Assembly (NCBI GenBank): GCA_965116725.1
Contig: OZ220700.1
Location: 77,897 to 141,896 of the forward strand
Direction of reading: 5' to 3'
Source: Thermodesulfobacteriota bacterium
GTDB taxonomy: Bacteria > Desulfobacterota_D > UBA1144 > Nemesobacterales > Nemesobacteraceae
Length of the DNA stretch: 64,000 nucleotides
The translations under genes and the position numbers were made by a program. How positions within the stretch are numbered: the first letter of the stretch is position 1; each line of letters starts with the position of its first letter. Shown here in pieces: positions 3,669-16,190 of the stretch. The notes below the pieces were generated by a model that searched no databases, was not told where the DNA came from, and worked only from the letters and a program-made list of their open reading frames with translations.

Positions 3669-5591
3669 ATGGCTTCTAAGATAATAGGAATAGACCTTGG
3701 AACAACTAATTCATGCATAGCCATCGTTGAGGGCGGCGAACCGAAAGTGATAATCAACGAGGAAGGCACGAGAACGACCCCGTCGGTAGTCGCGTTTCTA
3801 AAAGGCGGAGAAGAGATTCTGGTCGGCGGACCGGCGAAGCGCCAGGCCGTGGCCAATCCCGAAAACACCGTCTACTCCACGAAAAGGCTTATGGGCAGAA
3901 GGTTCGAGGAGATATCGAGCGAAACTTACAGCCTTGCCTACAAGGTAGTGAAATCAGGCAAGTCGGACGCCTGGGTAGAGGTAGAGGGAAAAGAGTATTC
4001 TCCTCCGCAGGTCTCAGCGCACGTGCTCACGAAGCTTAGGAAGGCTGCCGAGGATTACTTGGGGTCTGAAGTCACTGAAGCCGTTATCACTGTTCCCGCG
4101 TATTTTAACGACAGCCAGCGCCAAGCCACAAAAGATGCCGGGAAAATAGCTGGCCTTGACGTAAAGCGCATAATAAACGAGCCGACCGCGGCAGCTTTGG
4201 CCTACGGGTTTGACAAGAAGAAAGAAGGCATGATAGTCGTCTACGACCTCGGAGGCGGAACTTTTGACGTATCGGTGCTTGAGGTCGGAAACAACGTTAT
4301 AGAGGTAAAGTCCACAAACGGCGATACCCATCTCGGCGGAGACGATTTTGACAAGAGGGTGATCGACTACATAATCTCCGAGTTCAAAAAGGATTCCGGG
4401 ATAGACCTCGGGGCGGACAAGATGGCCGTGCAGAGGCTGAGGGAAGCCGCCGAGAAAGCCAAGATCGAGCTTTCAAACACCGTCGAGACGGAAATTAACC
4501 TGCCGTTTATAACGGCCGATGCGAGCGGTCCAAAGCACCTTGTGATGAAGATAACGCGTTCAAAGTTCGAGCAGCTCATAGAAGATCTTATAAAAGGCAC
4601 GCTTAAGCCCTGCGAGCAGGCCCTTAAGGACGCCGGACTTCGCCCGGGCGAGATAGCCGAGGTAATACTGGTTGGCGGATCGACCAGGATCCCGCTTGTG
4701 CAGAAAGTCGTGACTGACTTTTTCGCAAAAGACCCGAGCAGGGGGATAAACCCCGACGAAGTGGTTGCCATGGGGGCCGCCATACAGGCGGGCGTGCTTG
4801 GAGGGGACGTAACCGATGTGCTCCTTCTCGACGTGATACCGCTCTCCTTGGGTATAGAAACCCTTGGAGGGGTCATGACCACTATAATCGAGAGAAACAC
4901 GACCATTCCCACGAAGAAAAGCCAGGTTTTTACCACAGCAGAAGATAACCAGAACTCGGTTGAGATCCACGTGCTGCAGGGGGAGAGGCAAATGGCTGCC
5001 GATAACAGGACGCTTGCTAGGTTCATCCTGTCGGGGATTCCCGCGGCTGCAAGAGGGATTCCGCAGATAGAGGTCACTTTCGACACGGACGCCGACGGAA
5101 TACTCCACGTATCCGCCAAGGACAACGCGACCCAGAAGGAGCAGAAGGTTAAGGTCGAGGCTTCAAGCGGGCTAAGCAGCGATGAGATCGACTCCATGGT
5201 CGAAGAAGCCGAGAAGATGTCCGAGAAGGACAAGGAGAAAAGCGAGCAGGTTCAGAAGAGAAACCAGCTTGACGAGCTTGTTTACAGGACCGACAAGAGC
5301 TTCCAGGAGCTTGGCGATGGTCTCTCCGAGGATGAGAAGAAGGATCTAGAGCAGGCCCTTGAAGAAGGAAGGGAAGCGCTTAAGTCGGATGATCCGACCA
5401 GAATTGACCAAGCGACAGAGAAAATAACCGCTGTTTCCCACAAGCTTGCGGAGCTTATGTATAAGAAACAGCAGGAAGAGGCTGCTGAACAGGGTGCCGG
5501 GGAGGGTGGACAGGAAGGTTCTGCGTCTGGGCAAGGAAATTCCACCTCGGGCGATGATGTTATAGACGCCGAGTTTACCGAGCAAAAGTAA
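3669..5591 (+). CDS. dnaK: Molecular chaperone DnaK (Hsp70)
   Basis: [18 protein letters not shown] and [10 protein letters not shown] are textbook Hsp70 signatures over the full length. An AGGAGG RBS is present. Confidence 0.97.
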
Positions 5592-5949
5592 GCCTCGAAT
5601 TCAATTCCTCCCCCTGTTTTTCATTGAGAGGGCATCGCTCTTCTAATCGGTAAAAAGAGTGCCGAAATAGTTTTGCTAGGGGAGTTATATATCTAGCTTC
5701 CCTAAACTAGACAATCTACTCAAATAAGTAAGGAGCTAGGGCTACGATTTGTCCATTGGGTAGAGAAACATTATAATTTAAAAGCTCGTTTCATCAAACG
5801 ACAAAAATGCTTCCATCACTCTTTTTGTGCTAATAACTTCGTATAATCAGTAATTATTTCTTTAAGTGGTACTCACAAATGTCACGTTAAATCCAATGAG
5901 CGACTTCTGATCTACGGAAGACTTGGTTTGATCACGAAATCAGGAGTAA

Positions 5950-6251
5950 TATCCCAAGAAATATAACAATGCCAACAGTCTCGGACTAAAGTTTCACCTC
6001 CACAGAAGAGATTTGCCGGATTCGCCGGACCTGATTTCCCCAAGGAGAAAAACAGCACTGTTTGTGCATGGATGTTTCTGGTACAGACGCAAGAATTGTT
6101 TGGGAGCAACGACTCCAAAAACCAACATTGAGTACTGGAACAACAAATTCAGGCACAATATGGAGCACGATAGGGAAAGCAGAAGAAAATTGAGCATAAC
6201 AGCTGGAAAGTCTTTGTGATATGGGGTGTGAAACAAAAACTAGGAAATTAA
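5950..6251 (+). pseudogene. vsr: Very-short-patch repair endonuclease (Vsr) remnant, N-terminally truncated and frameshifted
   Basis: LFVHGCFWYRRKNCLGATTPKTNIEYWNNKFRHNMEHDRESRRKL matches the Vsr core (FVDGCFWH ... PKTN.EFW ... RD). The expected C-terminal SWKVFVIWG block continues in the +1 frame after an A-run near 6180. The first roughly 30 residues are missing. Confidence 0.6.
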
Positions 6252-6311
6252 TAGAAGCTTTTTAAAGGAAAAACTTTTTAATCTAACTGTCAATTCTTCT
6301 ATACATCCCGC

Positions 6312-7901
6312 TTAGGTGCCCATTACCGCACCGGCTTCCATCATAATAGCCTCGATTTCGGGGCGCAATTTATTTGGTATCTCTGCTGCTTGGTTTATCT
6401 GAACATATTTGAAAGTGTTTAGATCAAACGGCACCCGGTCGTCACACTTGGCAGGTTCAAACAAGAAAATAAGGCGGTTCTTCTCGTGGTGCTTAAGGGC
6501 GAATCCCGCTTCGATATAGACATTGGGACGATGACCTGTAAGGTCGCAAACAATAATGTCAGAAGAAGCGATGGCCTCATACATTCTGGAATGAATGGGA
6601 AAAGTGCCGCCTTCCTCAGTTCCCATGTCGATCAGCTCAAGTCTCATACCATGAACTTGCTGAAAAGTATTGAGTGTTTGTTGAAGTTGTTGGAACCGTA
6701 ACACCGCTTTATCGTAGGCATTTTCCGGTGCATCCTGAGCCGGATACCAGCGGGCGAGAAAAACGCGATTGGGGATACGGGACTGTGCCACCTTGAAGGT
6801 TTCAAGTAACTGTTGTGCTGGAGAAATCGGATTCAACAAGTTGGTAATGCCATGGTCGCCTAGCCAATGGCCAATCCGATCAAGGCAATCCACTGTTCGG
6901 CGAACCTTCTTTTCGTGATCTTCCCCATTTTCTTCATGCCAGACTAGAGCAGCCAGTTCAAGGAAGCCATGCGTTTTGCAGAGAGAAGGATGGTTAACTT
7001 CCAACTGCGTAACGATATCGGATAATCCTGCAAACAAGTCATTTGCGAAACTAGTCAATGTTTGTCGATCTCGGGCGATAGCCGCATCCATGTTGATCAT
7101 GTTTCGAGCAGACTCCCACAAGGCAGTCAGTGGACGCTCACCGAATCGCCGCCTTGTCGGTTCCGGCAATCCCTTCAGTTGATTCGCCAGAAGTCGTGTC
7201 AAGTGCAGTTCTTTACTATAGGAAAACTCGTTGTCCGGTGTCATTGCATAATCTGGGTGCTGGCCGAGCAGCAGGTGCATTCCGTGTTCCGATTCTAACG
7301 GCAGCGCAGTGCTGTTGATGGTATGAAAGATCAGCGATTCCGAGAAATCGTCGGCGTCACTATCTGGTGGCCCAAGCAACACCATGCAAAATGGTGCAAG
7401 ATATTTTTGCGGAAGGTTCACGTCCTCCTGCAAATTTTCAGCAAACGCCAGCCGATGGTTTCCATCAATACGGCGGATGAGCTTATCCGCCTTAATTGCT
7501 TCCAATTCACTAGACTTCACCCGCAGTTTCTGAATACGGTGATTCTTTCCTGTGAAACGCCTTCCCATCCTGATGAGGCCATAGCCCTTTGTTTCAATAC
7601 CTACGGTTTCATTGTCAATCTGGATCGGCTCTCCTTCACAACGGACAGCGAGAATCACCTCTGGGATGAAGCGATTGTCACTGTATTCCAGATAGTTCTT
7701 AATATCTTCTGCGTGTTTAGCGTCAAGCTTGCGTTGGTGACCGTCTACTTGACCAGTCTGGTCACCAACAGTCATTTGATAGGGAACGGAAACCGCCGCC
7801 AGATCACGCAAGTCAGCAAAACCACGAATGATCTTGAAGATGCCGAGAACCCCTGCCGAAAACAGTCCTTCGAATTCGATGTATTGTCGTCGACGGGACA
7901 T
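6312..7901 (-). CDS. Fusion protein: DndB-like DGQHR (ParB/Srx-fold) domain N-terminally, nucleoside 2-deoxyribosyltransferase-like (NDT-like) domain C-terminally
   Basis: The N-terminal region carries a QR motif (GHQRKLDAKHAEDIKNYL), a DGxHR motif (IDGNHRLAF) and FHTINSTALPL, typical of DGQHR/DndB-like proteins. The C-terminus has DLTGHRPNVYIEAGFAL, the ExGxA catalytic block of NDT/DNPH1-like domains. The start lies 2 nt after the hsdS stop on the same strand. Confidence 0.55.
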   Translation of the reverse strand: MSRRRQYIEFEGLFSAGVLGIFKIIRGFADLRDLAAVSVPYQMTVGDQTGQVDGHQRKLDAKHAEDIKNYLEYSDNRFIPEVILAVRCEGEPIQIDNETVGIETKGYGLIRMGRRFTGKNHRIQKLRVKSSELEAIKADKLIRRIDGNHRLAFAENLQEDVNLPQKYLAPFCMVLLGPPDSDADDFSESLIFHTINSTALPLESEHGMHLLLGQHPDYAMTPDNEFSYSKELHLTRLLANQLKGLPEPTRRRFGERPLTALWESARNMINMDAAIARDRQTLTSFANDLFAGLSDIVTQLEVNHPSLCKTHGFLELAALVWHEENGEDHEKKVRRTVDCLDRIGHWLGDHGITNLLNPISPAQQLLETFKVAQSRIPNRVFLARWYPAQDAPENAYDKAVLRFQQLQQTLNTFQQVHGMRLELIDMGTEEGGTFPIHSRMYEAIASSDIIVCDLTGHRPNVYIEAGFALKHHEKNRLIFLFEPAKCDDRVPFDLNTFKYVQINQAAEIPNKLRPEIEAIMMEAGAVMGT

Positions 7902-7902
7902 A

Positions 7903-9234
7903 TCAACTTGCCCCTACAGGATGAATGCCGAGGATCATCTTTTCAATATCGGTTTCCCGGTCGATCAATGTACCGTTGGCAGCGCTGATGTTTTTCATTA
8001 TTTTTAGTCGGCGTTGTGCGAAATCTTGCTGAACAGCGCCAGATATTTCGGGAAGCCTGATCTCGGCTAAGTTCGCATAGTACATTCGTTGTTTCACACC
8101 GCCCACTCGGTTGAATGAAACAAGCGAGAGAAAATAGTCCGTCCGCAGCAAAAGCGCCATGAAATCAGGAAGAAAACCGTTTTTTATCCGCCATACTTGA
8201 TATTCTGGACTGGTAATCGCATCATTCGGTACATCCGGCACGATACCGAGGGAACCGACATTGGCGCGGGTCGGGTTATGGAAAAACCAGTCTTTCTCGA
8301 TCTTCTTGTATGACGCATTGAAATCCTTGCCCTTTTGTATAGAACTTAGGAAAATTCCTTCTTCATTGTTAACGCCATATATGAACCATTCCTTCTCAGG
8401 TTCCACCCAAGGTTTGACGGTTTCGGTACATTCCTCAGTATAATCGCCCAGCCGCACAAATTCAGGATTGGTGGAAATGAAAGCAGCTGCACGTCCGGCT
8501 TTTACATCCCATTGTGTAGCATTAGCGTAGTTGGCAAAAAAGACCCTGGAACGGGCGGTTTGACTAAAGGCGTGTGTTTGGTTTGCGAGATAAGTGTGAA
8601 GTTCAGAAACCAAATCCGATAAAGCCACTTCCGCTGCAAATAAATCTTGCCGCGCGGCCGCCCAGTACGCCTCAATCTGCCGCTGAACAGGTAGCGACGG
8701 GACAGGGACTCTAACTACTTCCAACTGTGCTGGTTGAATGCGCTTGCGCCCAGATGTCCCACTAACCATCGAATTTAGATATTTCTTAAACGCCACTGTT
8801 CTAAACAGGAGTCTTATATAGCCCGGAATCGCTTTATCTGTTTTTACTGAATAGACGGGAAACTCCGATGTGACACACATATTCTCAATATCGTCTGGCG
8901 CAAGGCCAATCGCGCCATTGCGTACATCGATCTTCGAGAAAACTACATCACCCGGATGCGCACGAAATAGTCTTCCCTTGATGTCTTTGATTTGAATGGG
9001 AACACGTGGTTCAATTGAACCGTCAAAGCGAATGGTGAGCAACGTGACCCTTGTCTCTGGAGATAGAGTGGCAAGTGCAGCTTCGCTCCTTCTTTCCAAT
9101 ATCTGATTCAATGGCTGGATGATTTCATCAGGCCAATTCCAATTGACAGAAAATTGGGCTGCTACAGACCAAGATGCCAGTTTTTGAAAAGCAACTGAGA
9201 AGGTTCTTGGGCGAAGTAGAGAATCCATACTCAT
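7903..9234 (-). CDS. hsdS: Type I restriction-modification specificity subunit (HsdS), two target-recognition domains
   Basis: A central conserved spacer LEVVRVPVPSLPVQRQIEAYW and a C-terminal conserved LPEISGAVQQDFAQRRLKIM repeat separate two variable TRDs. The start overlaps the methyltransferase stop as ATGA. Confidence 0.85.
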   Translation of the reverse strand: MSMDSLLRPRTFSVAFQKLASWSVAAQFSVNWNWPDEIIQPLNQILERRSEAALATLSPETRVTLLTIRFDGSIEPRVPIQIKDIKGRLFRAHPGDVVFSKIDVRNGAIGLAPDDIENMCVTSEFPVYSVKTDKAIPGYIRLLFRTVAFKKYLNSMVSGTSGRKRIQPAQLEVVRVPVPSLPVQRQIEAYWAAARQDLFAAEVALSDLVSELHTYLANQTHAFSQTARSRVFFANYANATQWDVKAGRAAAFISTNPEFVRLGDYTEECTETVKPWVEPEKEWFIYGVNNEEGIFLSSIQKGKDFNASYKKIEKDWFFHNPTRANVGSLGIVPDVPNDAITSPEYQVWRIKNGFLPDFMALLLRTDYFLSLVSFNRVGGVKQRMYYANLAEIRLPEISGAVQQDFAQRRLKIMKNISAANGTLIDRETDIEKMILGIHPVGAS

Positions 9235-11462
9235 TCTTGCGTGCCTATGATCATGGCGAAGGCCTCTGGGTCAGCCAGAAATTGCCGGTACCACTCCACA
9301 CACGTCTTTTCGATCTCCGGGGGCTGATTGGAATTCGGATAAAGCTCGTTCTGATCCTCCTCGCCGGTAGCAGAAATACCGACCTTTTCTGCTTCATACA
9401 TAAAAATAGGATAGTCGAAGCGTTCCTTGACAAGTTGCCTGGTTTCGGAATGTTTTCTAGCATCCATCTCTTTCGCGTAGTCCTTCAGTTTCTTTTGCAT
9501 GGTCTTACGCGTTTTGGCATCCCTGTTGTCTTTGGCTCGCTGAATAGCGGCTTCCAATAGTGCTTTTTTCGTTGCTATTTCCTCTGCGTACTTGTCTTCT
9601 ACCTCATCCGTGGCAGCAGCAAGGGTTGCGTCGAACCACTGTTGCTCTTGTTCGGTGAATTTCTTCAAAAAGAGCAGCGAACATTTTACACTGGCCCCAG
9701 AACTTATAAAAGTCTCCTCTGGAAGACTTACCACGGCGCGCAGAAAAGCACGGTCTTCGGTGAATTGACGCACGTAAGCCAGCGAGGGATTGTTGTAGAT
9801 ACCTTCGGGCAACACGATCCCCAATCGACCACCGGGTCTAAGCAGGTCAAGGCAACGTTCGATAAACAGTATTTCTGTCTTTATCTTCGCCCGGTTGCTT
9901 TTTGGCAGATCAAACAGGCTGGCAATGGGCTTGTTAAGTGCAGCCCTTACTCTGTCCTGAGCAGCGCGGTAAATATCCCCGTATTCGCTTATGTAGGACT
10001 GCTCTGCCACTGAGTTGACCGTAATATCGGTCTCAAGCACTCTATCGGAAGGTTCGACATTGGCACCGAAAGGCGGATTAGTCAGGATGATGTCAAAACG
10101 ACCCTCGAAGATACCATTGACGTTTAGAAAGCCATCGTGATGATGTACGCCCCCGTGCCCGTCACCGTGCATGATCATGTTCATCTTACTGGTACGCGCC
10201 ATCCTGTCATTGGCATCTGTTCCATAGATGCAGCGATTCGATAGGTTCCACAATCGGGAGCCTTCGCGCTGCTGGTCAATGGACGACTGAATTTCTGTAT
10301 ATTTATCCTGAAGCATTTTGGCTTTTTTTGCTGCGGGCAATGATTTTTTTACGTCAATGCCCTTTTTGTAGGTGTTATATTCCCGGTCGGCGTCTTCCAG
10401 TATTTTTTCCCGCACGAGTTCAAAAACACGGATTAAAAATCCACCTGAACCACTGGCGGGGTCACAGACAATTTCACCTTCTTGAGGATCGACCATGCGT
10501 ACCATGAATTCGACGATGGAGCGTGGAGTGAAAAACTGACCGATCTCTCCCCGAAATGTACGCCCAAGAAAGCGTTCAAAAGCAACACCCTTTACATCTT
10601 CGCTGGTATCGGAAAGGTTGTATTTCTCTAGCTTCCGAACAATCTCTTCACCGGTGGCTGGCCTCAAGTTGATGCGCTCTTCTTTCTCAAAAATCTTGTC
10701 ATTGGCGTAAGCGTTCTTTGTGTTTTGAAAAAGGGTATCTAGCGGATTTTCGGAAATCTGATCATGAAGCACATCAACAGTAAACAGATTCTTCCTATTA
10801 CGTCGGGTCAACAACTGCCGTTCCACATAGACTTTCGTGAACAACACTTTGGCGATCTCATCAAAAGCGGCCGCCGGGTCCTTCTTTTCTCTGTTACGAA
10901 TGATGTTGTGGCACTGGTGTAATAGATCGGCGAATTCTTTTTCCTTGAAGGCGCGCAATTTGGAGAATAATTCAGTAATATCACTGTCCGAAGCATCACC
11001 ATGCGGAATATTTTCGATTTCCTCAGTGTAACCGGGCAGTTTATCTTTTATTATTCGCCAGTATTTTGTTTCCCGCGAATTATGGGTAACAAAAAAGGGT
11101 GCGCCACAGATACGCGCATAATTTTCGCCCTGATTGTAATCCTGAGCTTTGATCGTGACGTTATCGGATTTGCATTCGACAATAATAAAGGGAGCGTTAT
11201 TGTCCGCTTTATCCTGTTGCGTCCGCCATATGACGAAATCCGCTCTAGCCCCGGCACTACCCGGACCGGTCAGATCTAGTTCCTCCGATATTTGGGCGGG
11301 TGTGAAACCATATTCGTTGATCAGTATCAATAAGTAATTTTGTCGTACGGTCTCTTCGGGGGTTTCAACTAACCATTTACTGCGAATGTAGCTCCAGATT
11401 TGTCCTTTTGACTCGTCTCGTTTGATATTTAAGGCACTCATATCTCGGTGTTTCCTTTGCAA
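9231..11462 (-). CDS. Gamma-class N6-adenine DNA methyltransferase (HsdM-like) with an N-terminal HsdR_N-type PD-(D/E)xK domain
   Basis: Motif X/I (QFFTPRSIVEFMV ... DPASGSGGFL) and motif IV (ILTNPPFG) are present. Residues about 60 to 130 (ADFVIW ... FIIVECKSDN ... QGENYA) resemble the HsdR N-terminal restriction-endonuclease-like domain. Confidence 0.85.
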   Translation of the reverse strand: MQRKHRDMSALNIKRDESKGQIWSYIRSKWLVETPEETVRQNYLLILINEYGFTPAQISEELDLTGPGSAGARADFVIWRTQQDKADNNAPFIIVECKSDNVTIKAQDYNQGENYARICGAPFFVTHNSRETKYWRIIKDKLPGYTEEIENIPHGDASDSDITELFSKLRAFKEKEFADLLHQCHNIIRNREKKDPAAAFDEIAKVLFTKVYVERQLLTRRNRKNLFTVDVLHDQISENPLDTLFQNTKNAYANDKIFEKEERINLRPATGEEIVRKLEKYNLSDTSEDVKGVAFERFLGRTFRGEIGQFFTPRSIVEFMVRMVDPQEGEIVCDPASGSGGFLIRVFELVREKILEDADREYNTYKKGIDVKKSLPAAKKAKMLQDKYTEIQSSIDQQREGSRLWNLSNRCIYGTDANDRMARTSKMNMIMHGDGHGGVHHHDGFLNVNGIFEGRFDIILTNPPFGANVEPSDRVLETDITVNSVAEQSYISEYGDIYRAAQDRVRAALNKPIASLFDLPKSNRAKIKTEILFIERCLDLLRPGGRLGIVLPEGIYNNPSLAYVRQFTEDRAFLRAVVSLPEETFISSGASVKCSLLFLKKFTEQEQQWFDATLAAATDEVEDKYAEEIATKKALLEAAIQRAKDNRDAKTRKTMQKKLKDYAKEMDARKHSETRQLVKERFDYPIFMYEAEKVGISATGEEDQNELYPNSNQPPEIEKTCVEWYRQFLADPEAFAMIIGTQE

Positions 11463-11530
11463 ACTAAGCTATCTTGGACAACCTCTTCTGAAAAGGTCGT
11501 GGTTTCTTGTTTTATTCTATTGCCCTGCTT

Positions 11531-11557
11531 GTCATTGGTTGGTGTCGTACCAATGAC
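11531..11557. promoter_or_regulatory. Perfect 9-bp inverted repeat (GTCATTGGT n9 ACCAATGAC) upstream of the methyltransferase operon start
   Basis: Seen directly in the sequence. It lies about 70 to 95 bp upstream of the start codon of the 9231..11462 gene, on the promoter side. A second palindrome CACGGGTACCCCGTG is at about 11600. Confidence 0.3.
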
Positions 11558-12308
11558 CCGTATCGCATAGTCAATATTCGTGTACCTGTTTCGATTTCGC
11601 CACGGGTACCCCGTGTTCGTTGCAATGGGAATTATATACAATCCTACACAAAACTTTGAATTTCTCCCTGTAAGACCTTAACTCTCACTCTTGTTTTAGG
11701 TGATATTTTACACAAATAGAGAGAATGATTAAGAAGAGTTAGAAATGTCTAAGAAGAAACGTAAAACCCTTGGGAAGTCAGACGGAGAGGGGATAGAATT
11801 GAGAAACTGTTTTAACTCTTTCCGACTGAGGAAGCGACGGTGAAGTAGTTTGAGGAAAGACGCTGGCCAATACGTACAAACAACGGTGACAGCCGATTAA
11901 AGCCCGGCGAATACCTTTTAGAATCTGGCTCTCCAGATTCAGGTTCATATAATTTTCTGGATCCATATCGACTCGACTTCGTGCTCTTTGTCGTACTTAA
12001 AATGAAAGGACAAAGAACATTACACAAGAGCTCGCTAGCTGGACATAGCTGTTAGGTTATTTGGGCCGGCCGAAAATATCGGATCAGAAAGCTACGCTGG
12101 AAAGGCTTACTAAGAAGTTCGAACATGAAAAAGAAAAACCAAACTAAGAAAACTCGAGACCGGCCAGTCAAGAACTTAAGCAAGCCTACCAATGCCTCAC
12201 CAGAAGAAACAGCTAAAGCAATATCTCTGCCGGCGGAAAAGAAGCTAGAAGTCTCAAAGAAAATCAAGAACTAAGAGTCTGGTAGAATTGTATATAATTT
12301 CCAATCCA

Positions 12309-12575
12309 TTAGATGAAATGTTTGGTCCATATCCAAATTTCAGCAGTAATACACGCTCTGAGCTTCTGCCGTAACTTCTCTGGTGTCTCCCAAACAATAC
12401 GATTGTATTGGCGTGTGTCGAAACGGATTTTCTCTATTACATCTCTACAAGTAAATATCACCGGAATATTGAGTCCATGAGCAAAGTCCGCTTCGTAGTA
12501 GACACCCTATACTGGGTTCTCACTCCTCAGTTGCTAAAGGCTCCGGTCCATAAGTAATTTCCTTAGATTCTCCTT
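12309..12575 (-). pseudogene. Decayed paralog of the NDT-like domain (remnant with in-frame stops)
   Basis: Minus-strand translation gives LRSENPV*GVYYEADFAHGLNIPVIFTCRDVIEKIRFDTRQYNRIVWETPEKLRQKLRA. This aligns with the C-terminus of the 6312..7901 protein (DLTGHRPNVYIEAGFALKHHEKNRLIFLF ... VPFDLNTFKYVQ ... PNKLRPEIEA). It is interrupted by TAG stops and has no start. Confidence 0.4.
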
Positions 12576-13116
12576 CTCCTATCTCCCAGCATTGACGAAA
12601 TCTTTCTAAACGATCCGAGCTGAAGCGAGCCTCATATAAGCGAGTAGAGCGGGTTGCTACGACTGAAAATTGGAAGGATTCATCACGTGCCAAGGAATTC
12701 ATTTTCTCGACCATTTCTTCTTCGTTGGTATCCCACAGTTCTATGTCTCTCGCGTTGCCTCCTTTGTTGTCGATTATCCAGATCCACCAATTCTCGTGTG
12801 AATCGATTCGAAGAGTGAGATGGGGTATGATATCCCGTGAGTCTGCTTTCTGTAACAATTCAGTCTGCTTGCCGAGCTGATCTCGCGTAAGCGATAACTC
12901 CTTGCGCTGAAGGCGGAGTTCTTTGGACTGCAGGAAATACCCGTATACCAGCCAAAGGAAAGCTAGAGGTGTGAAGAGACCTGCAAGAAAGTCTCCCAAC
13001 TCGCTAAGGTTGCCTGCCTTTAAGAGCTCCCATGCATCGTTACTGCGGAAAAAGAGAATGGCGACAATGTAGAGAATACTCAGGCCAACTATTATCCAGG
13101 AATTAGAAAACTTCAT
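12520..13116 (-). CDS. Hypothetical membrane protein (two predicted N-terminal TM helices, coiled-coil-like middle)
   Basis: Hydrophobic stretches WIIVGLSILYIVAILFF and LAGLFTPLAFLWLVYGYFL. It is AT-rich. Its 3' end overlaps the NDT-like remnant in another frame, so it may be the decayed N-terminal half of one former gene. Confidence 0.4.
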   Translation of the reverse strand: MKFSNSWIIVGLSILYIVAILFFRSNDAWELLKAGNLSELGDFLAGLFTPLAFLWLVYGYFLQSKELRLQRKELSLTRDQLGKQTELLQKADSRDIIPHLTLRIDSHENWWIWIIDNKGGNARDIELWDTNEEEMVEKMNSLARDESFQFSVVATRSTRLYEARFSSDRLERFRQCWEIGEGESKEITYGPEPLATEE

Positions 13117-13454
13117 TCTTCCGCCTTCCGCGTGTCCTACTCCGGAACTTTTGGGGTTCAGGGTTTCCCTCAGAAGTCGCTAGCAGATTTCGCCGCATAC
13201 TCTATAGTAATAGAATTTACTGAATGATTAACAGGAATCAATAGAAATTATGCCAACCCCTGTTTGCCGCTTCTAGCATTGAAGAAAGAGTGGTCAAACC
13301 ATTTTTGCAGCCATACTTGGGTTTCCTCGAAATAGTTCCGCTCCAGTAGTGATATTTTCCCCCCTGCGGTTAAAATGATTTTCCGAATCCAGGCTTTCGC
13401 TTCAGCTCCAAAGCACCGTTTTGAGCGTCTGAGGCCGGGTTCCGGATTACAAGG

Positions 13455-13477
13455 GCAACATGGTTTTTCCATGTTGC
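13455..13477. promoter_or_regulatory. Perfect palindrome GCAACATGG-TTTTT-CCATGTTGC about 45 bp upstream of aceE
   Basis: A 9-bp inverted repeat with a 5-nt spacer read directly in the sequence. Its position fits an operator or leader hairpin for the pyruvate dehydrogenase operon. Confidence 0.35.
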
Positions 13478-13520
13478 AAATTTCCCCTGCGGCCCCGTTT
13501 CGCCGCGTTTTGCATGGGTA

Positions 13521-16190
13521 ATGGAAGAAGATTCTCAAATTTCGGAAGAAGAAGTTGAAGATCGGGAATGGATCGAGTCACTTGAATACGTGATCGAGAA
13601 CTCCGGCCGCGAGAGGGCAACCGAACTGCTCCGAAAGCTCAGGATATACTCCCAGAAAAAAGGCGTACAGGTTCCCTACGCCGCGAACACCCCCTACGTG
13701 AACACCATTTCCCTCGAGGACCAGCCGCCTTACCCCGGCAACTACGAAATAGAGCGCAACATAAGAAGCATCATAAGGTGGAACGCCATGGCCATGGTCG
13801 TGCGCGCAAACAGGATAAGCGACGGCATCGGCGGACATATATCGACCTACGCCTCGGCCGCGACGCTCTACGAGATAGGGTTCCACCATTTCTTCAGGGC
13901 AGGCGACGAGGGCCGGGAAGGGGACATGATCTACTTCCAGGGACACGCCTCGCCGGGCATATACGCAAGGGCCTTTCTCGAAGGCACGGTCTCTATCGAG
14001 CAGATGCGCAATTTCAGGAGGGAGCTCGGCGGAGACGGCCTTTCTTCCTATCCCCACCCCTGGCTCATGCCGGACTTCTGGGAGTTCCCGACGGTCTCGA
14101 TGGGACTTTCTCCCATAATGGCGATTTACCAGGCCCGTTTCAACAGATACCTCGAGGACAGGGGCCTAAAGCCCAGGACCGACGCCAAGGTGTGGGCCTT
14201 TATCGGGGACGGGGAAACCGACGAGCCTGAGACCCTGGGAGCCATCACCCTCGCGTCGAGGGAAAAGCTCGACAACCTGATATTCGTGGTTAACTGCAAC
14301 CTCCAGCGCCTTGACGGCCCCGTCAGGGGAAACGGCAAGATAATACAGGAGCTTGAGAGAATCTTCAGAGGGGCGGGGTGGAACGTGATAAAGGTTGTCT
14401 GGGGAGGAACCTGGGATCCGATCCTGGCGCAGGATAAAGACGGCTTTCTGGTCGAGAGGATGGAAGCGGCCCTTGACGGGGATTACCAGAGGTACACCAT
14501 TTCTCCCGGGAAATACATAAGGGAGCATTTTTTCGGCACCCGCCCTGAAATCCTGAAGATGGTCGAGGACCACGCGGACGAGCAGCTTGAGAAGCTCGCA
14601 AGAGGAGGCCACGACTCAGAGAAGGTCTACGCCGCCTACAAGGCCGCGGTTGAGAACACCGGTTCTCCCACGGTGATTCTCGCAAAGACCATAAAGGGTT
14701 ACGGTCTCGGGGAAGCGGGGGAGGGGAAGAACATAACCCACCAGCAGAAAAAACTTAACGAAGAGGAACTCAAGCGCTTCCGGACCCGCTTCTACATACC
14801 GATTACGGACCAGGAAATCAGAAGAGCTCCCTTCTACAGGCCTGCTCCCGACAGCCCCGAGATGAAGTATCTGCGCGAGAGAAGGAAGGCACTCGGCGGA
14901 CCCGTCCCGAAGCGGACCGTACGGGCAAAGCCGCTTCGGAAGATTCCGGAACGGGTGTTCGAGGACTTCAAAAAGGCCTCGGGTCCCAAGAGGAAAGTGG
15001 CCACTACCATGGTGATCGTCCACATGCTCTCAAGACTCATGCGGGACAGGGACATAGGAGATCTGATAGTGCCCATAGTCCCCGACGAGGCGAGAACTTT
15101 CGGAATGGAGGCGCTTTTCCGCCAGGTGGGCATCTATTCAAGCGTGGGACAGCTCTACGAACCCGTTGACGCTGACACCCTCCTTTACTACAAGGAGGCA
15201 AAGGACGGGCAGATACTCGAAGAAGGCATAACCGAGGCGGGCAGCATGTCCTCCTTCATAGCTGCCGGCACGGCCTACTCGACACACGGCATAAACACCA
15301 TTCCCTTTTTCATTTACTACTCGATGTTCGGCTTTCAGAGAATAGGGGATCTTATCTGGGCCGCCGCCGACATGAAGTGCAGGGGTTTCATGGTGGGAGG
15401 CACGGCGGGGCGGACCACCCTTGCGGGCGAAGGTCTTCAGCACCAGGACGGAAACAGCCATCATTTCGCCTACGCCTATCCGAACCTAAAGGCCTACGAT
15501 CCTGCTTTCTCCTACGAGATAGCCGTGATAGTCAGGGACGGGATAAAGAGGATGTACCAGGACGGGGAGGAGATATTCTACTACATAACGGTGATGAACG
15601 AGCGCTACGTGCAGCCCGCCATGCCGGAAGGGGTCGAGGAAGGTATAATAAAGGGGATGTACAGGTTCGCGTCTTCTGAGCCCAAGAACTCGGGGAAAAA
15701 GGTCCATCTTTTCGGAAGCGGCGCCATCATGAACGAGGTTCTCTGGGCGAGGGAGGTTCTTGAGAGCGGCTACGGCGTCCCGACCGACGTCTGGAGCATC
15801 ACGAGCTACAAGGAGCTTTACCAGGACGCGAAAGAGGCGGAAAGATGGAACCGCCTAAATCCCGGCGAGAAGAGAAGAAAGAGCTATATTTCAGAGTGCA
15901 TGGAAGGGGAAGACGGGATATTTGTTGCCGCGACCGACTATCTTAAGAGCCTTCCCGATTCCGTTTCCTCCTATTTTCCCAAGCCCCTTGTCTCTTTAGG
16001 CACCGACGGGTTCGGAAGAAGCGACACTCGGGAGGCGCTTCGCGACTTCTTCGAGGTTGACTACCGCCACATCGCGATTGCGGCGCTCCATGAGCTTGCT
16101 AGGGAAGGCAGGATTGACGAAGAGACCGTTAGCGAGGCGATAAGCGAGTTTGGAATCGACCGGGGGAAGCCCAACCCCGCGGTCACGTGA
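13521..16190 (+). CDS. aceE: Pyruvate dehydrogenase E1 component, homodimeric type
   Basis: Full-length AceE-like sequence (ISTYASAATLYEIGFHHFF ... GHASPGIYARAFLEG) of about 890 aa. Confidence 0.95.
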   Translation: MEEDSQISEEEVEDREWIESLEYVIENSGRERATELLRKLRIYSQKKGVQVPYAANTPYVNTISLEDQPPYPGNYEIERNIRSIIRWNAMAMVVRANRISDGIGGHISTYASAATLYEIGFHHFFRAGDEGREGDMIYFQGHASPGIYARAFLEGTVSIEQMRNFRRELGGDGLSSYPHPWLMPDFWEFPTVSMGLSPIMAIYQARFNRYLEDRGLKPRTDAKVWAFIGDGETDEPETLGAITLASREKLDNLIFVVNCNLQRLDGPVRGNGKIIQELERIFRGAGWNVIKVVWGGTWDPILAQDKDGFLVERMEAALDGDYQRYTISPGKYIREHFFGTRPEILKMVEDHADEQLEKLARGGHDSEKVYAAYKAAVENTGSPTVILAKTIKGYGLGEAGEGKNITHQQKKLNEEELKRFRTRFYIPITDQEIRRAPFYRPAPDSPEMKYLRERRKALGGPVPKRTVRAKPLRKIPERVFEDFKKASGPKRKVATTMVIVHMLSRLMRDRDIGDLIVPIVPDEARTFGMEALFRQVGIYSSVGQLYEPVDADTLLYYKEAKDGQILEEGITEAGSMSSFIAAGTAYSTHGINTIPFFIYYSMFGFQRIGDLIWAAADMKCRGFMVGGTAGRTTLAGEGLQHQDGNSHHFAYAYPNLKAYDPAFSYEIAVIVRDGIKRMYQDGEEIFYYITVMNERYVQPAMPEGVEEGIIKGMYRFASSEPKNSGKKVHLFGSGAIMNEVLWAREVLESGYGVPTDVWSITSYKELYQDAKEAERWNRLNPGEKRRKSYISECMEGEDGIFVAATDYLKSLPDSVSSYFPKPLVSLGTDGFGRSDTREALRDFFEVDYRHIAIAALHELAREGRIDEETVSEAISEFGIDRGKPNPAVT

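Follow-up and report, generated by a model that had tools for sequence, protein, structure and literature searches.

Can a DNA methylase that stands beside a specificity gene, with no HsdR gene, cut DNA by itself? The question is raised by a three-gene operon in a 64,000-nucleotide stretch of contig OZ220700.1 from a Thermodesulfobacteriota bacterium (the window, hereafter), in which an N6-adenine methyltransferase had been noticed, in a sequence-only reading, to carry a nuclease-like N-terminal module. We call the methyltransferase M, the specificity subunit S, and the gene that follows them T. We consider that M and S probably constitute a restriction-modification (RM) enzyme resembling those of Type IIB, with T as an accessory partner. 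The three genes are as follows.

9231 to 11441, minus strand: M, the RM-type gene, 736 amino acids (aa), identified from the open reading frame (ORF) list, Pfam HSDR_N_2 and N6_Mtase, and PADLOC MTase_I PDLC03018 (753 bits, full length)
7903 to 9234, minus strand: S, the specificity subunit, 443 aa with two target-recognition halves, identified by PADLOC Specificity_I PDLC03148 and Pfam Methylase_S
6312 to 7901, minus strand: T, the third gene, 529 aa with a DGQHR (DndB/ParB-like) N terminus, a helical middle, and a TIR/nucleoside 2-deoxyribosyltransferase (NDT)-like C terminus

A minus-strand ORF fills positions 9231 to 11462 exactly, and a plus-strand reading of the same interval was rejected, its translation being riddled with stops. 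The maximal version of this ORF begins at a TTG at 11462 and is probably seven codons too long; the likelier start of M is the ATG at 11441, which has AAGGAAA in front of it and gives a product of 736 aa. A public protein of that length is 100% identical to M, and gene calls made independently for two contigs of the same organism returned 736, 443, and 529 aa for M, S, and T, respectively. The ATG of S overlaps the stop codon of M (ATGA), T begins 1 nt past the stop codon of S, and T is translationally coupled to S. From its N terminus, M can be divided into the following parts.

11004 to 11360, minus strand: HSDR_N_2-type PD-(D/E)xK nuclease domain, M residues 28 to 146 (Pfam PF13588; coordinates checked by translation)
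11118 to 11282, minus strand: catalytic core, with E54 at 11280 to 11282, D68 at 11238 to 11240, E89-C-K91 at 11169 to 11177, and Q104-G-E-N-Y108 at 11118 to 11132
10602 to 11003, minus strand: helical connector, M residues 147 to 280, in a position equivalent to the multihelical connector of BsaXI
9657 to 10601, minus strand: gamma-class N6-adenine methyltransferase domain, M residues 281 to 595, with motif I DPASGSGGFL at 10434 to 10463 and motif IV NPPF at 10068 to 10079
9417 to 9653, minus strand: long helical hairpin before the last beta-strand, M residues 597 to 675, with helices at 597 to 638 and 642 to 675 in an AlphaFold2 model

Judged by its sequence, the N-terminal domain of M truly belongs to the HsdR-type PD-(D/E)xK domains, and its catalytic set is intact and conserved. 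Pfam PF13588 (HSDR_N_2) matched whole M at an E value of 2e-22 (79.8 bits against a cut-off of 25), with profile positions 1 to 110 of 110 covered, and matched the isolated domain at 83.8 bits (E = 1.1e-23). These matches bear out the nuclease-like module that had been proposed at the head of the methyltransferase, and the peptides then quoted for it (ADFVIW, APFIIVECKSDNVTIKAQDYNQGENYA, and FFVTHNSRETKYW) are all present in the M translation. The name given to it, HsdR_N, does not stand: PF04313, a family that by its profile is related to the M domain, scored 14.5 bits on whole M and 20.2 bits on the isolated domain, in either case short of its cut-off of 25.1, and the fitting family is HSDR_N_2.

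The D...ExK arrangement pointed out in the sequence-only reading was likewise upheld in an alignment of 74 full-length relatives; these came from 80 genome loci, are 57 to 81% identical, and represent many phyla and some archaea. D68, E89, and K91 are present in 74 of 74 sequences, with the triad replaced in none, and E54 and Y108 are present in 73 of 74 each. For Q104 the count comes solely from another alignment, of 47 closer homologues, where it is invariant; the Q104xxxY108 motif begins 13 residues after K91, and QxxxY is a motif of HsdR and RecB-family nucleases (PMC2475608). Conservation across the domain matches that of the methylase (mean column majority, 0.74 versus 0.75 to 0.82). Since the catalytic positions (QxxxY among them) vary rarely or never in 74 members from many phyla, the pattern is not that expected of a decayed nuclease. 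An AlphaFold2 model of full-length M built from 47 close homologues was poor overall (predicted local distance difference test [pLDDT], 58.9), with residues 1 to 90 usable (pLDDT of 75 to 87 for residues 1 to 50 and 58 to 79 for residues 51 to 90). Its secondary structure runs alpha(28-43)-beta(51-56)-beta(66-71)-beta(86-90)-alpha(99-112)-beta(116-119), with the acidic and lysine residues at canonical positions, and as modeled this alpha-beta-beta-beta-alpha-beta pattern is that of the PD-(D/E)xK core.

Downstream of the nuclease domain, the complete gamma-class methyltransferase that had been described is confirmed. N6_Mtase (PF02384) matched M at an E value of 2.5e-34, and the motifs FFTPR (residue 303), DPASGSGGFL (residue 327), and NPPF (residue 455) follow one another in the order X, I, IV, which places the enzyme in the gamma class. 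The PDB matches of the methylase are the BsaXI RM protein and Type I M subunits. The connector (residues 147 to 280) is all-helical in the model, at low confidence; both helices of the hairpin have a pLDDT of 86 to 92, and M ends in a C-terminal tail after the hairpin.

The best PDB match of M by sequence is the RM protein of BsaXI (phmmer, 4e-26; family profile, 2.2e-32), to which the family profile aligns in five collinear segments that span BsaXI residues 36 to 784. A Foldseek search with the M model returned three BsaXI entries first (1.2e-14 to 4.3e-13), followed by Type I M subunits at 2.6e-7 or worse and, at lower ranks, the distant matches DrdV, LlaBIII, and BpuSI; given the poor model, the TM-scores of this search are meaningless and the ranking alone is informative. 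The N-terminal nuclease fragment of BsaXI itself falls in HSDR_N_2 (7e-10) and aligns with M at an E value of 4e-6, which places BsaXI E73, D90, E105, and K107 onto M E54, D68, E89, and K91. Alanine mutants at these four BsaXI residues abolish cleavage (PMC11997821). The intact HSDR_N_2 residues and the BsaXI mutagenesis together lend good support to the earlier suggestion that DNA cleavage resides in this protein, where it would be the work of the predicted nuclease. In the BsaXI domain map the connector occupies residues 193 to 348 (PMC11997821). The helical hairpin of M takes the position of the BsaXI "knob," aligning with BsaXI residues 548 to 698, and the strand that follows it, DYPIFMYEAEKVG, aligns with BsaXI residues 740 to 784.

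The partner of M is an HsdS-like protein. S matched PADLOC Specificity_I at 2.2e-44 in two stretches, and a comparison of one half with the other shows weak similarity (21% over 215 aa, E = 3e-6). Among the 80 related loci, for which we took flanks of up to 10 kb and clustered every ORF of at least 150 aa, S directly follows M in 70. The identity of S across these loci ranges from 20 to 74%, while that of M is at least 57%, a pattern expected of shuffling of specificities and target-recognition domains (TRDs). The absence of HsdR, remarked on from the sequence, also proved correct, both in the window and in the related loci. No HsdR or helicase was found in the window, where the checked ORFs of at least ~450 aa are housekeeping genes (DnaK, AceE/AceF/Lpd, PBP1A, FtsH, RecN, and others), and no conserved helicase or HsdR was found within the flanks of the 80 loci. 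Recurrent neighbors in those loci are limited to S, T, a RadC-JAB gene (19 loci), Fic-like genes, and shadow ORFs.

These features have a known counterpart. In the Type IIB enzymes BcgI, CspCI, and BsaXI, an RM protein with an N-terminal PD-(D/E)xK domain and a gamma-class NPPF methylase is joined by a separate S with two TRDs, at 2RM:1S (PMC4081073, PMC11997821), and Type IIB enzymes have no accompanying methylase or translocase (PMC4081073). M and S show the same traits: a PD-(D/E)xK domain and a gamma-class NPPF methylase in one chain, as in the published definition (PMC4081073); a separate HsdS-like subunit with two TRDs; no ATP-dependent translocase or separate methyltransferase in the window and the 80 loci, as opposed to other parts of the genome; and sequence and fold homology to a characterized member, BsaXI. 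Since all of the defining sequence features of a Type IIB RM protein and its S are present, we assign M-S as Type IIB-like, leaving aside cleavage on both sides of the site, which is a biochemical criterion. The sequence-only reading had likened M to the single-chain Type IIG or Type ISP enzymes, with a separate S as the departure from them. The separate S is real, but the departure from known designs is not, for a cutter and methylase in one chain with a separate S is the already known Type IIB/IIC design and not a new arrangement. The less ordinary, new element is T, an unannotated gene linked to M-S that the sequence-only reading passed over.

By analogy with BcgI and BsaXI, from which we infer cleavage by M-S, its geometry, and its stoichiometry, two chains of the 736-aa RM fusion would assemble on one 443-aa S to give (RM)2S. 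S would recognize a bipartite target, and the gamma-class domain would methylate one adenine per half-site, thereby marking self DNA. On unmethylated DNA, the HSDR_N_2 domain (E54, D68, E89, K91, and QxxxY) would cut near the site without the need for an ATP-driven HsdR motor. M-S pairs persist without a conserved third gene in 30 loci and thus look self-sufficient. What, then, does T contribute? Two of its parts can be assigned.

7257 to 7901, minus strand: DGQHR-type N-terminal domain of T, about residues 1 to 215, with motifs D53-G-H-Q-R57 and D146-G-N-H-R150; NCBIfam matches lie over residues 30 to 203
6312 to 6776, minus strand: TIR/NDT-like C-terminal domain of T, residues 376 to 529, with invariant D453, E464 (candidate catalytic glutamate), G466, A468, and D493

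The N-terminal part of T matched TIGR03187 (DGQHR/DndB) at 2.5e-9 and 37.3 bits, under the curated cut-off of 58.85, and PF14072 at 14.7 bits, under the cut-off of 29.1. The DGHQR and DGNHR variants are conserved in T despite these subthreshold scores, and T therefore looks like a divergent relative of DGQHR/DndB proteins. The C terminus matched the PADLOC TIR effector profile (1.2e-9), and its fold appears to resemble those of N-glycosidases and TIR domains. In 27 T members (29 to 71% identity), G54, Q56, R57, R144, and D146 through R150 are invariant in the first domain, as are the five listed positions in the second. With invariant residues in both, both domains look functional. At E ≤ 1e-3, the T family has 545 representatives among 1.84 billion proteins, mostly of 490 to 600 aa or fragments, and T is annotated only as "hypothetical" in public data.

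T is the only recurrent third gene of the family. In the 23 loci whose third ORF clusters with T, it starts from -43 to +14 nt relative to the S stop codon. Where genome loci extend far enough downstream, T is present in 26, fragmentary in four, and missing from 30, and on the M tree T-bearing and T-less loci are interspersed. In relatives that lack T, the third genes are singletons typical of defense islands (YhcG nuclease, Fic, Schlafen/AlbA, kinase-helicase, and DUF4357). A reverse search with T as the query retrieved 80 metagenome loci, ~51 of them informative (at least 3.7 kb of upstream sequence); ~49 of the ~51 have the M family and S directly upstream, and the two without M-S both have a truncated T. 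T was absent from plasmids. T thus depends on M-S while M-S does not depend on T, which fits an accessory effector or guard on the RM complex. As such, T would be an M-S-dependent partner in which a DndB/ParB-like domain for binding DNA or nucleotides is joined to an N-glycosidase domain of the TIR/NDT-like kind. PrrC is an effector embedded in the EcoprrI RM operon, and we can speculate, by analogy, that T most likely acts as a second-line effector on its RM complex as PrrC does on EcoprrI.

A stronger version of this proposal, which we hold to be possible but doubtful, is that M, S, and T form an undescribed three-gene defense module in which a Type IIB-like (RM)2S is obligately partnered by T. 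In such a module, T would sense the RM complex or the state of its sites and would be triggered by unmethylated sites or by phage anti-restriction inhibition of the RM enzyme; it would then fire its N-glycosidase, adding a second layer of immunity by, for example, depleting NAD+ or nucleotides or excising bases. A literature search covering HSDR_N_2, DGQHR, and combinations of DndB-like, TIR, and RM components found no paper on an M-S-T triad, with a coverage that is incomplete and not proof of absence.

The linkage of T to M-S can also be explained differently. In a three-component system, M-S would only methylate and recognize DNA (its nuclease domain perhaps nicking or sensing), and T would execute restriction or killing, replacing HsdR in the loci that have it: its TIR/NDT-like domain would deplete NAD+, hydrolyze nucleotides, or excise bases in response to unmethylated sites. 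This account makes sense of a T that, save for the two truncated copies, never occurs without M-S upstream in the ~51 informative loci and is translationally coupled to S. It would likewise accommodate the invariant polar residues of T that fit active sites (DGxQR, DGNHR, D453, E464, and D493) and the likeness of its C terminus to N-glycosidases, TIR domains, and the PADLOC TIR effector profile. However, half of the loci with enough sequence have no T, yet the M-S nuclease residues are all intact; the catalytic set is conserved with or without T, and the T fragments in four loci point to ongoing loss. We therefore think it unlikely that T is the executioner.

It is more improbable that M and S form an orphan Type I-like methyltransferase (M2S) with an epigenetic and not a defensive role, in which the PD-(D/E)xK domain would be noncleaving and serve a structural, DNA-binding, or regulatory purpose. 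PD-(D/E)xK folds are sometimes reused for binding, databases annotate the M family as methylase only, and the nuclease activity of the family is a prediction, all of which such a reading can call upon. It does not sit well with catalytic positions, QxxxY among them, that are invariant or nearly so in 74 members of many phyla, nor with S subunits that are highly shuffled. The setting of the genes speaks against it too: the operon lies in a low-GC islet (41 to 49% GC, against 52 to 58% in the flanks), and its relatives are accompanied by genes of defense islands and mobile elements (RadC, YhcG, Fic, Schlafen/AlbA, and kinase-helicase). As for a classical Type I system with its HsdR encoded elsewhere in the genome, M and S do resemble HsdM and HsdS, but canonical HsdM has no N-terminal nuclease, Type I M structures align with M only from about residue 260, and the lack of HsdR or helicase in the window and of any conserved one near the 80 relatives leaves this explanation with very little probability.

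Several points weigh against a Type IIB-like M-S enzyme, which we nevertheless prefer. BsaXI cleavage also requires acidic residues of a C-terminal "paddle" (PMC11997821), and M has no paddle; most other Type IIB RM subunits share this lack, and the paddle is also absent from BsaXI homologues below 800 aa and from the other identified Type IIB enzymes. The sequence similarity between M and BsaXI lies mostly in the methylase, the N-terminal segment alone contributing 3 to 5 bits in full-length HMMER alignments, and the poor full-length model did not capture the whole architecture well. Public annotation of the ~735-aa M family goes no further than "N-6 DNA methylase" or "type I restriction enzyme M protein," the PADLOC profile that M matched (PDLC03018) is labeled Type I methyltransferase, and the Type IIB-like activity of this family is, for every member, a prediction. 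Finally, the strictness with which T depends on M-S might be a sign that in T-bearing loci the nuclease domain does not accomplish restriction unaided.

The distribution of the M family suggests that it travels. It comprises at least 8,000 clusters at 90% identity, and the 120 closest relatives of M, drawn from many phyla (Gammaproteobacteria, Desulfobacterota, Deferribacteres [Geovibrio], Spirochaetes [Sphaerochaeta], and others), show 76 to 87% identity; an archaeal locus in a metagenome-assembled genome (MAG) of the Methanomicrobiales carries an M that is 60% identical. Such unusual conservation of M across phyla, combined with S proteins that are 20 to 74% identical, suggests that the genes are often transferred horizontally and that their TRDs are shuffled. 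Genomes with the M family include those of Acinetobacter variabilis, Pseudomonas sp. QL9, Stenotrophomonas pavanii, and Zhongshania arctica, and none of the E. coli genomes had the version of M found in an Enterobacteriaceae MAG. Plasmid-borne relatives of M are distant (40 to 44% identity). On Flammeovirga kamogawensis plasmid p1 (NZ_CP076130.1; locus 5692 to 11356), a relative 44% identical to M lies in an operon of a helix-turn-helix (HTH) regulator, an N-6 DNA methylase (770 aa), S, and an "ATP-binding protein" (568 aa) that differs from T; toxic Type II RM systems typically have such a controller-like HTH gene upstream. On Acidithiobacillus caldus plasmid pTcM1 (NC_010600.1; locus 5917 to 8685), a 922-aa "N-6 DNA methylase" that is 39.5% identical to M has no adjoining S and may be a single-chain form uniting restriction, modification, and specificity; an IscB gene and several transposases lie near it.

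In the window itself, the low-GC islet extends from ~5600 to 13500 (~8 kb) between dnaK (3669 to 5591) on one side and aceE (13521 to 16190; pyruvate dehydrogenase genes) on the other, and its composition would fit an arrival of the M-S-T genes by horizontal transfer. No tRNA, Rfam element, or integrase was seen at its borders. Upstream of M lies one further feature.

11631 to 11660, minus strand: promoter-like site TTCAAA-18-TATAAT, ~190 nt upstream of the M start, from a consensus scan and weak as evidence

The same scan found 13 sites where 10.3 were expected by chance. The gap on the 5' side of the M start (11442 to 12519, ~1.08 kb) contains ORFs of at most 71 aa and gave neither a tRNA nor an Rfam match. 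In the 19 related loci with a RadC-JAB gene (232 to 256 aa), that gene lies immediately upstream of M; it is not present in this window, and a tblastn search of the ~1-kb gap for a RadC remnant found nothing. Beyond the gap, a minus-strand ORF of 198 aa (12520 to 13116) has a hydrophobic N terminus with probably two membrane helices and keeps the same place on two contigs of the same organism; it may belong to the low-GC islet. This ORF had no Pfam, NCBIfam, or PADLOC match and no homologue in the 80 related genome loci. Farther away, at 886 to 2676 on the plus strand, three successive ORFs (352, 134, and 92 aa) without a Pfam match follow an ORF for a histidine-kinase-like ATPase.

If M-S is indeed Type IIB-like, the consequences go beyond this locus. 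A large family now annotated only as methylase or Type I M protein would most likely consist of complete, motor-less restriction enzymes of Type IIB design, and defense content would accordingly be mis-scored in surveys that treat M as a methylase of the orphan or Type I kind. Type IIB enzymes are useful reagents (e.g., in 2b-RAD), and the shuffled S subunits of the M family could supply many new specificities. Should T prove to be an RM-dependent effector, it would offer a new example of layered immunity built on a restriction enzyme, and if the three genes do form one module, T would represent a new kind of RM-coupled effector and a few hundred "hypothetical" clusters would gain a function.

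Among known systems, BsaXI (PDB 8w0p, 8w2p, and 8w2q) is the most similar to M-S. The two share an HSDR_N_2-type nuclease with alignable catalytic E/D/ExK residues, a helical connector, a gamma-class methylase, a helical insertion before the last strand, a separate S with two TRDs, and the lack of a translocase. They differ in sequence (~19 to 27% identity), in length (916 aa for BsaXI versus 736 aa for M), in the C-terminal paddle that M lacks, and in the linked third gene T, none being described for BsaXI in PMC11997821. BcgI and CspCI, compared by description only, also combine an RM fusion with an HsdS-like subunit at 2RM:1S, a bipartite target, an N-terminal PD-D/EXK domain, and an NPPF methylase (PMC4081073). 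Type I systems (EcoKI and EcoR124I; HsdR2M2S) have M and S cores homologous to those described here, and the N-terminal nuclease of their HsdR belongs to the same group as that of M, QxxxY included. In M-S, by contrast, the nuclease is on the M chain and not on a helicase-bearing HsdR, and there is no ATP-dependent motor gene; we did not classify M-S as Type I, there being no HsdR with a superfamily 2 helicase motor encoded beside M and S. Type IIG (e.g., MmeI) and Type ISP (LlaGI and LlaBIII) were also rejected, as the TRDs are on a separate S and M has no helicase domain. MADS resembles M-S in that MAD2 (NF047738) is the best NCBIfam match of M, aligned from residue 12 and thus with the N-terminal domain included, and S matches MAD5 weakly. 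Membership in MADS was rejected, since the MAD2 match reached 302 bits against a cut-off of 720 and, of mad1 to mad8, only MAD2 and MAD5 have counterparts here; T had no mad match in PADLOC.

For T, parallels come from other defense proteins. SspE has a DUF262-plus-nuclease layout akin to that of T, and PrrC of EcoprrI is like T in being embedded in an RM operon. GmrSD has a DUF262-plus-nuclease layout (PMC4619093) and is like T in having a ParB-like N-terminal domain followed by an effector domain. T stands apart from DndB-type proteins in that its DGQHR matches are below the curated cut-offs, and it stands apart from GmrSD, SspE, and PrrC in its putative effector domain, which is TIR/NDT-like, whereas those of the comparators are HNH nucleases or an anticodon nuclease.

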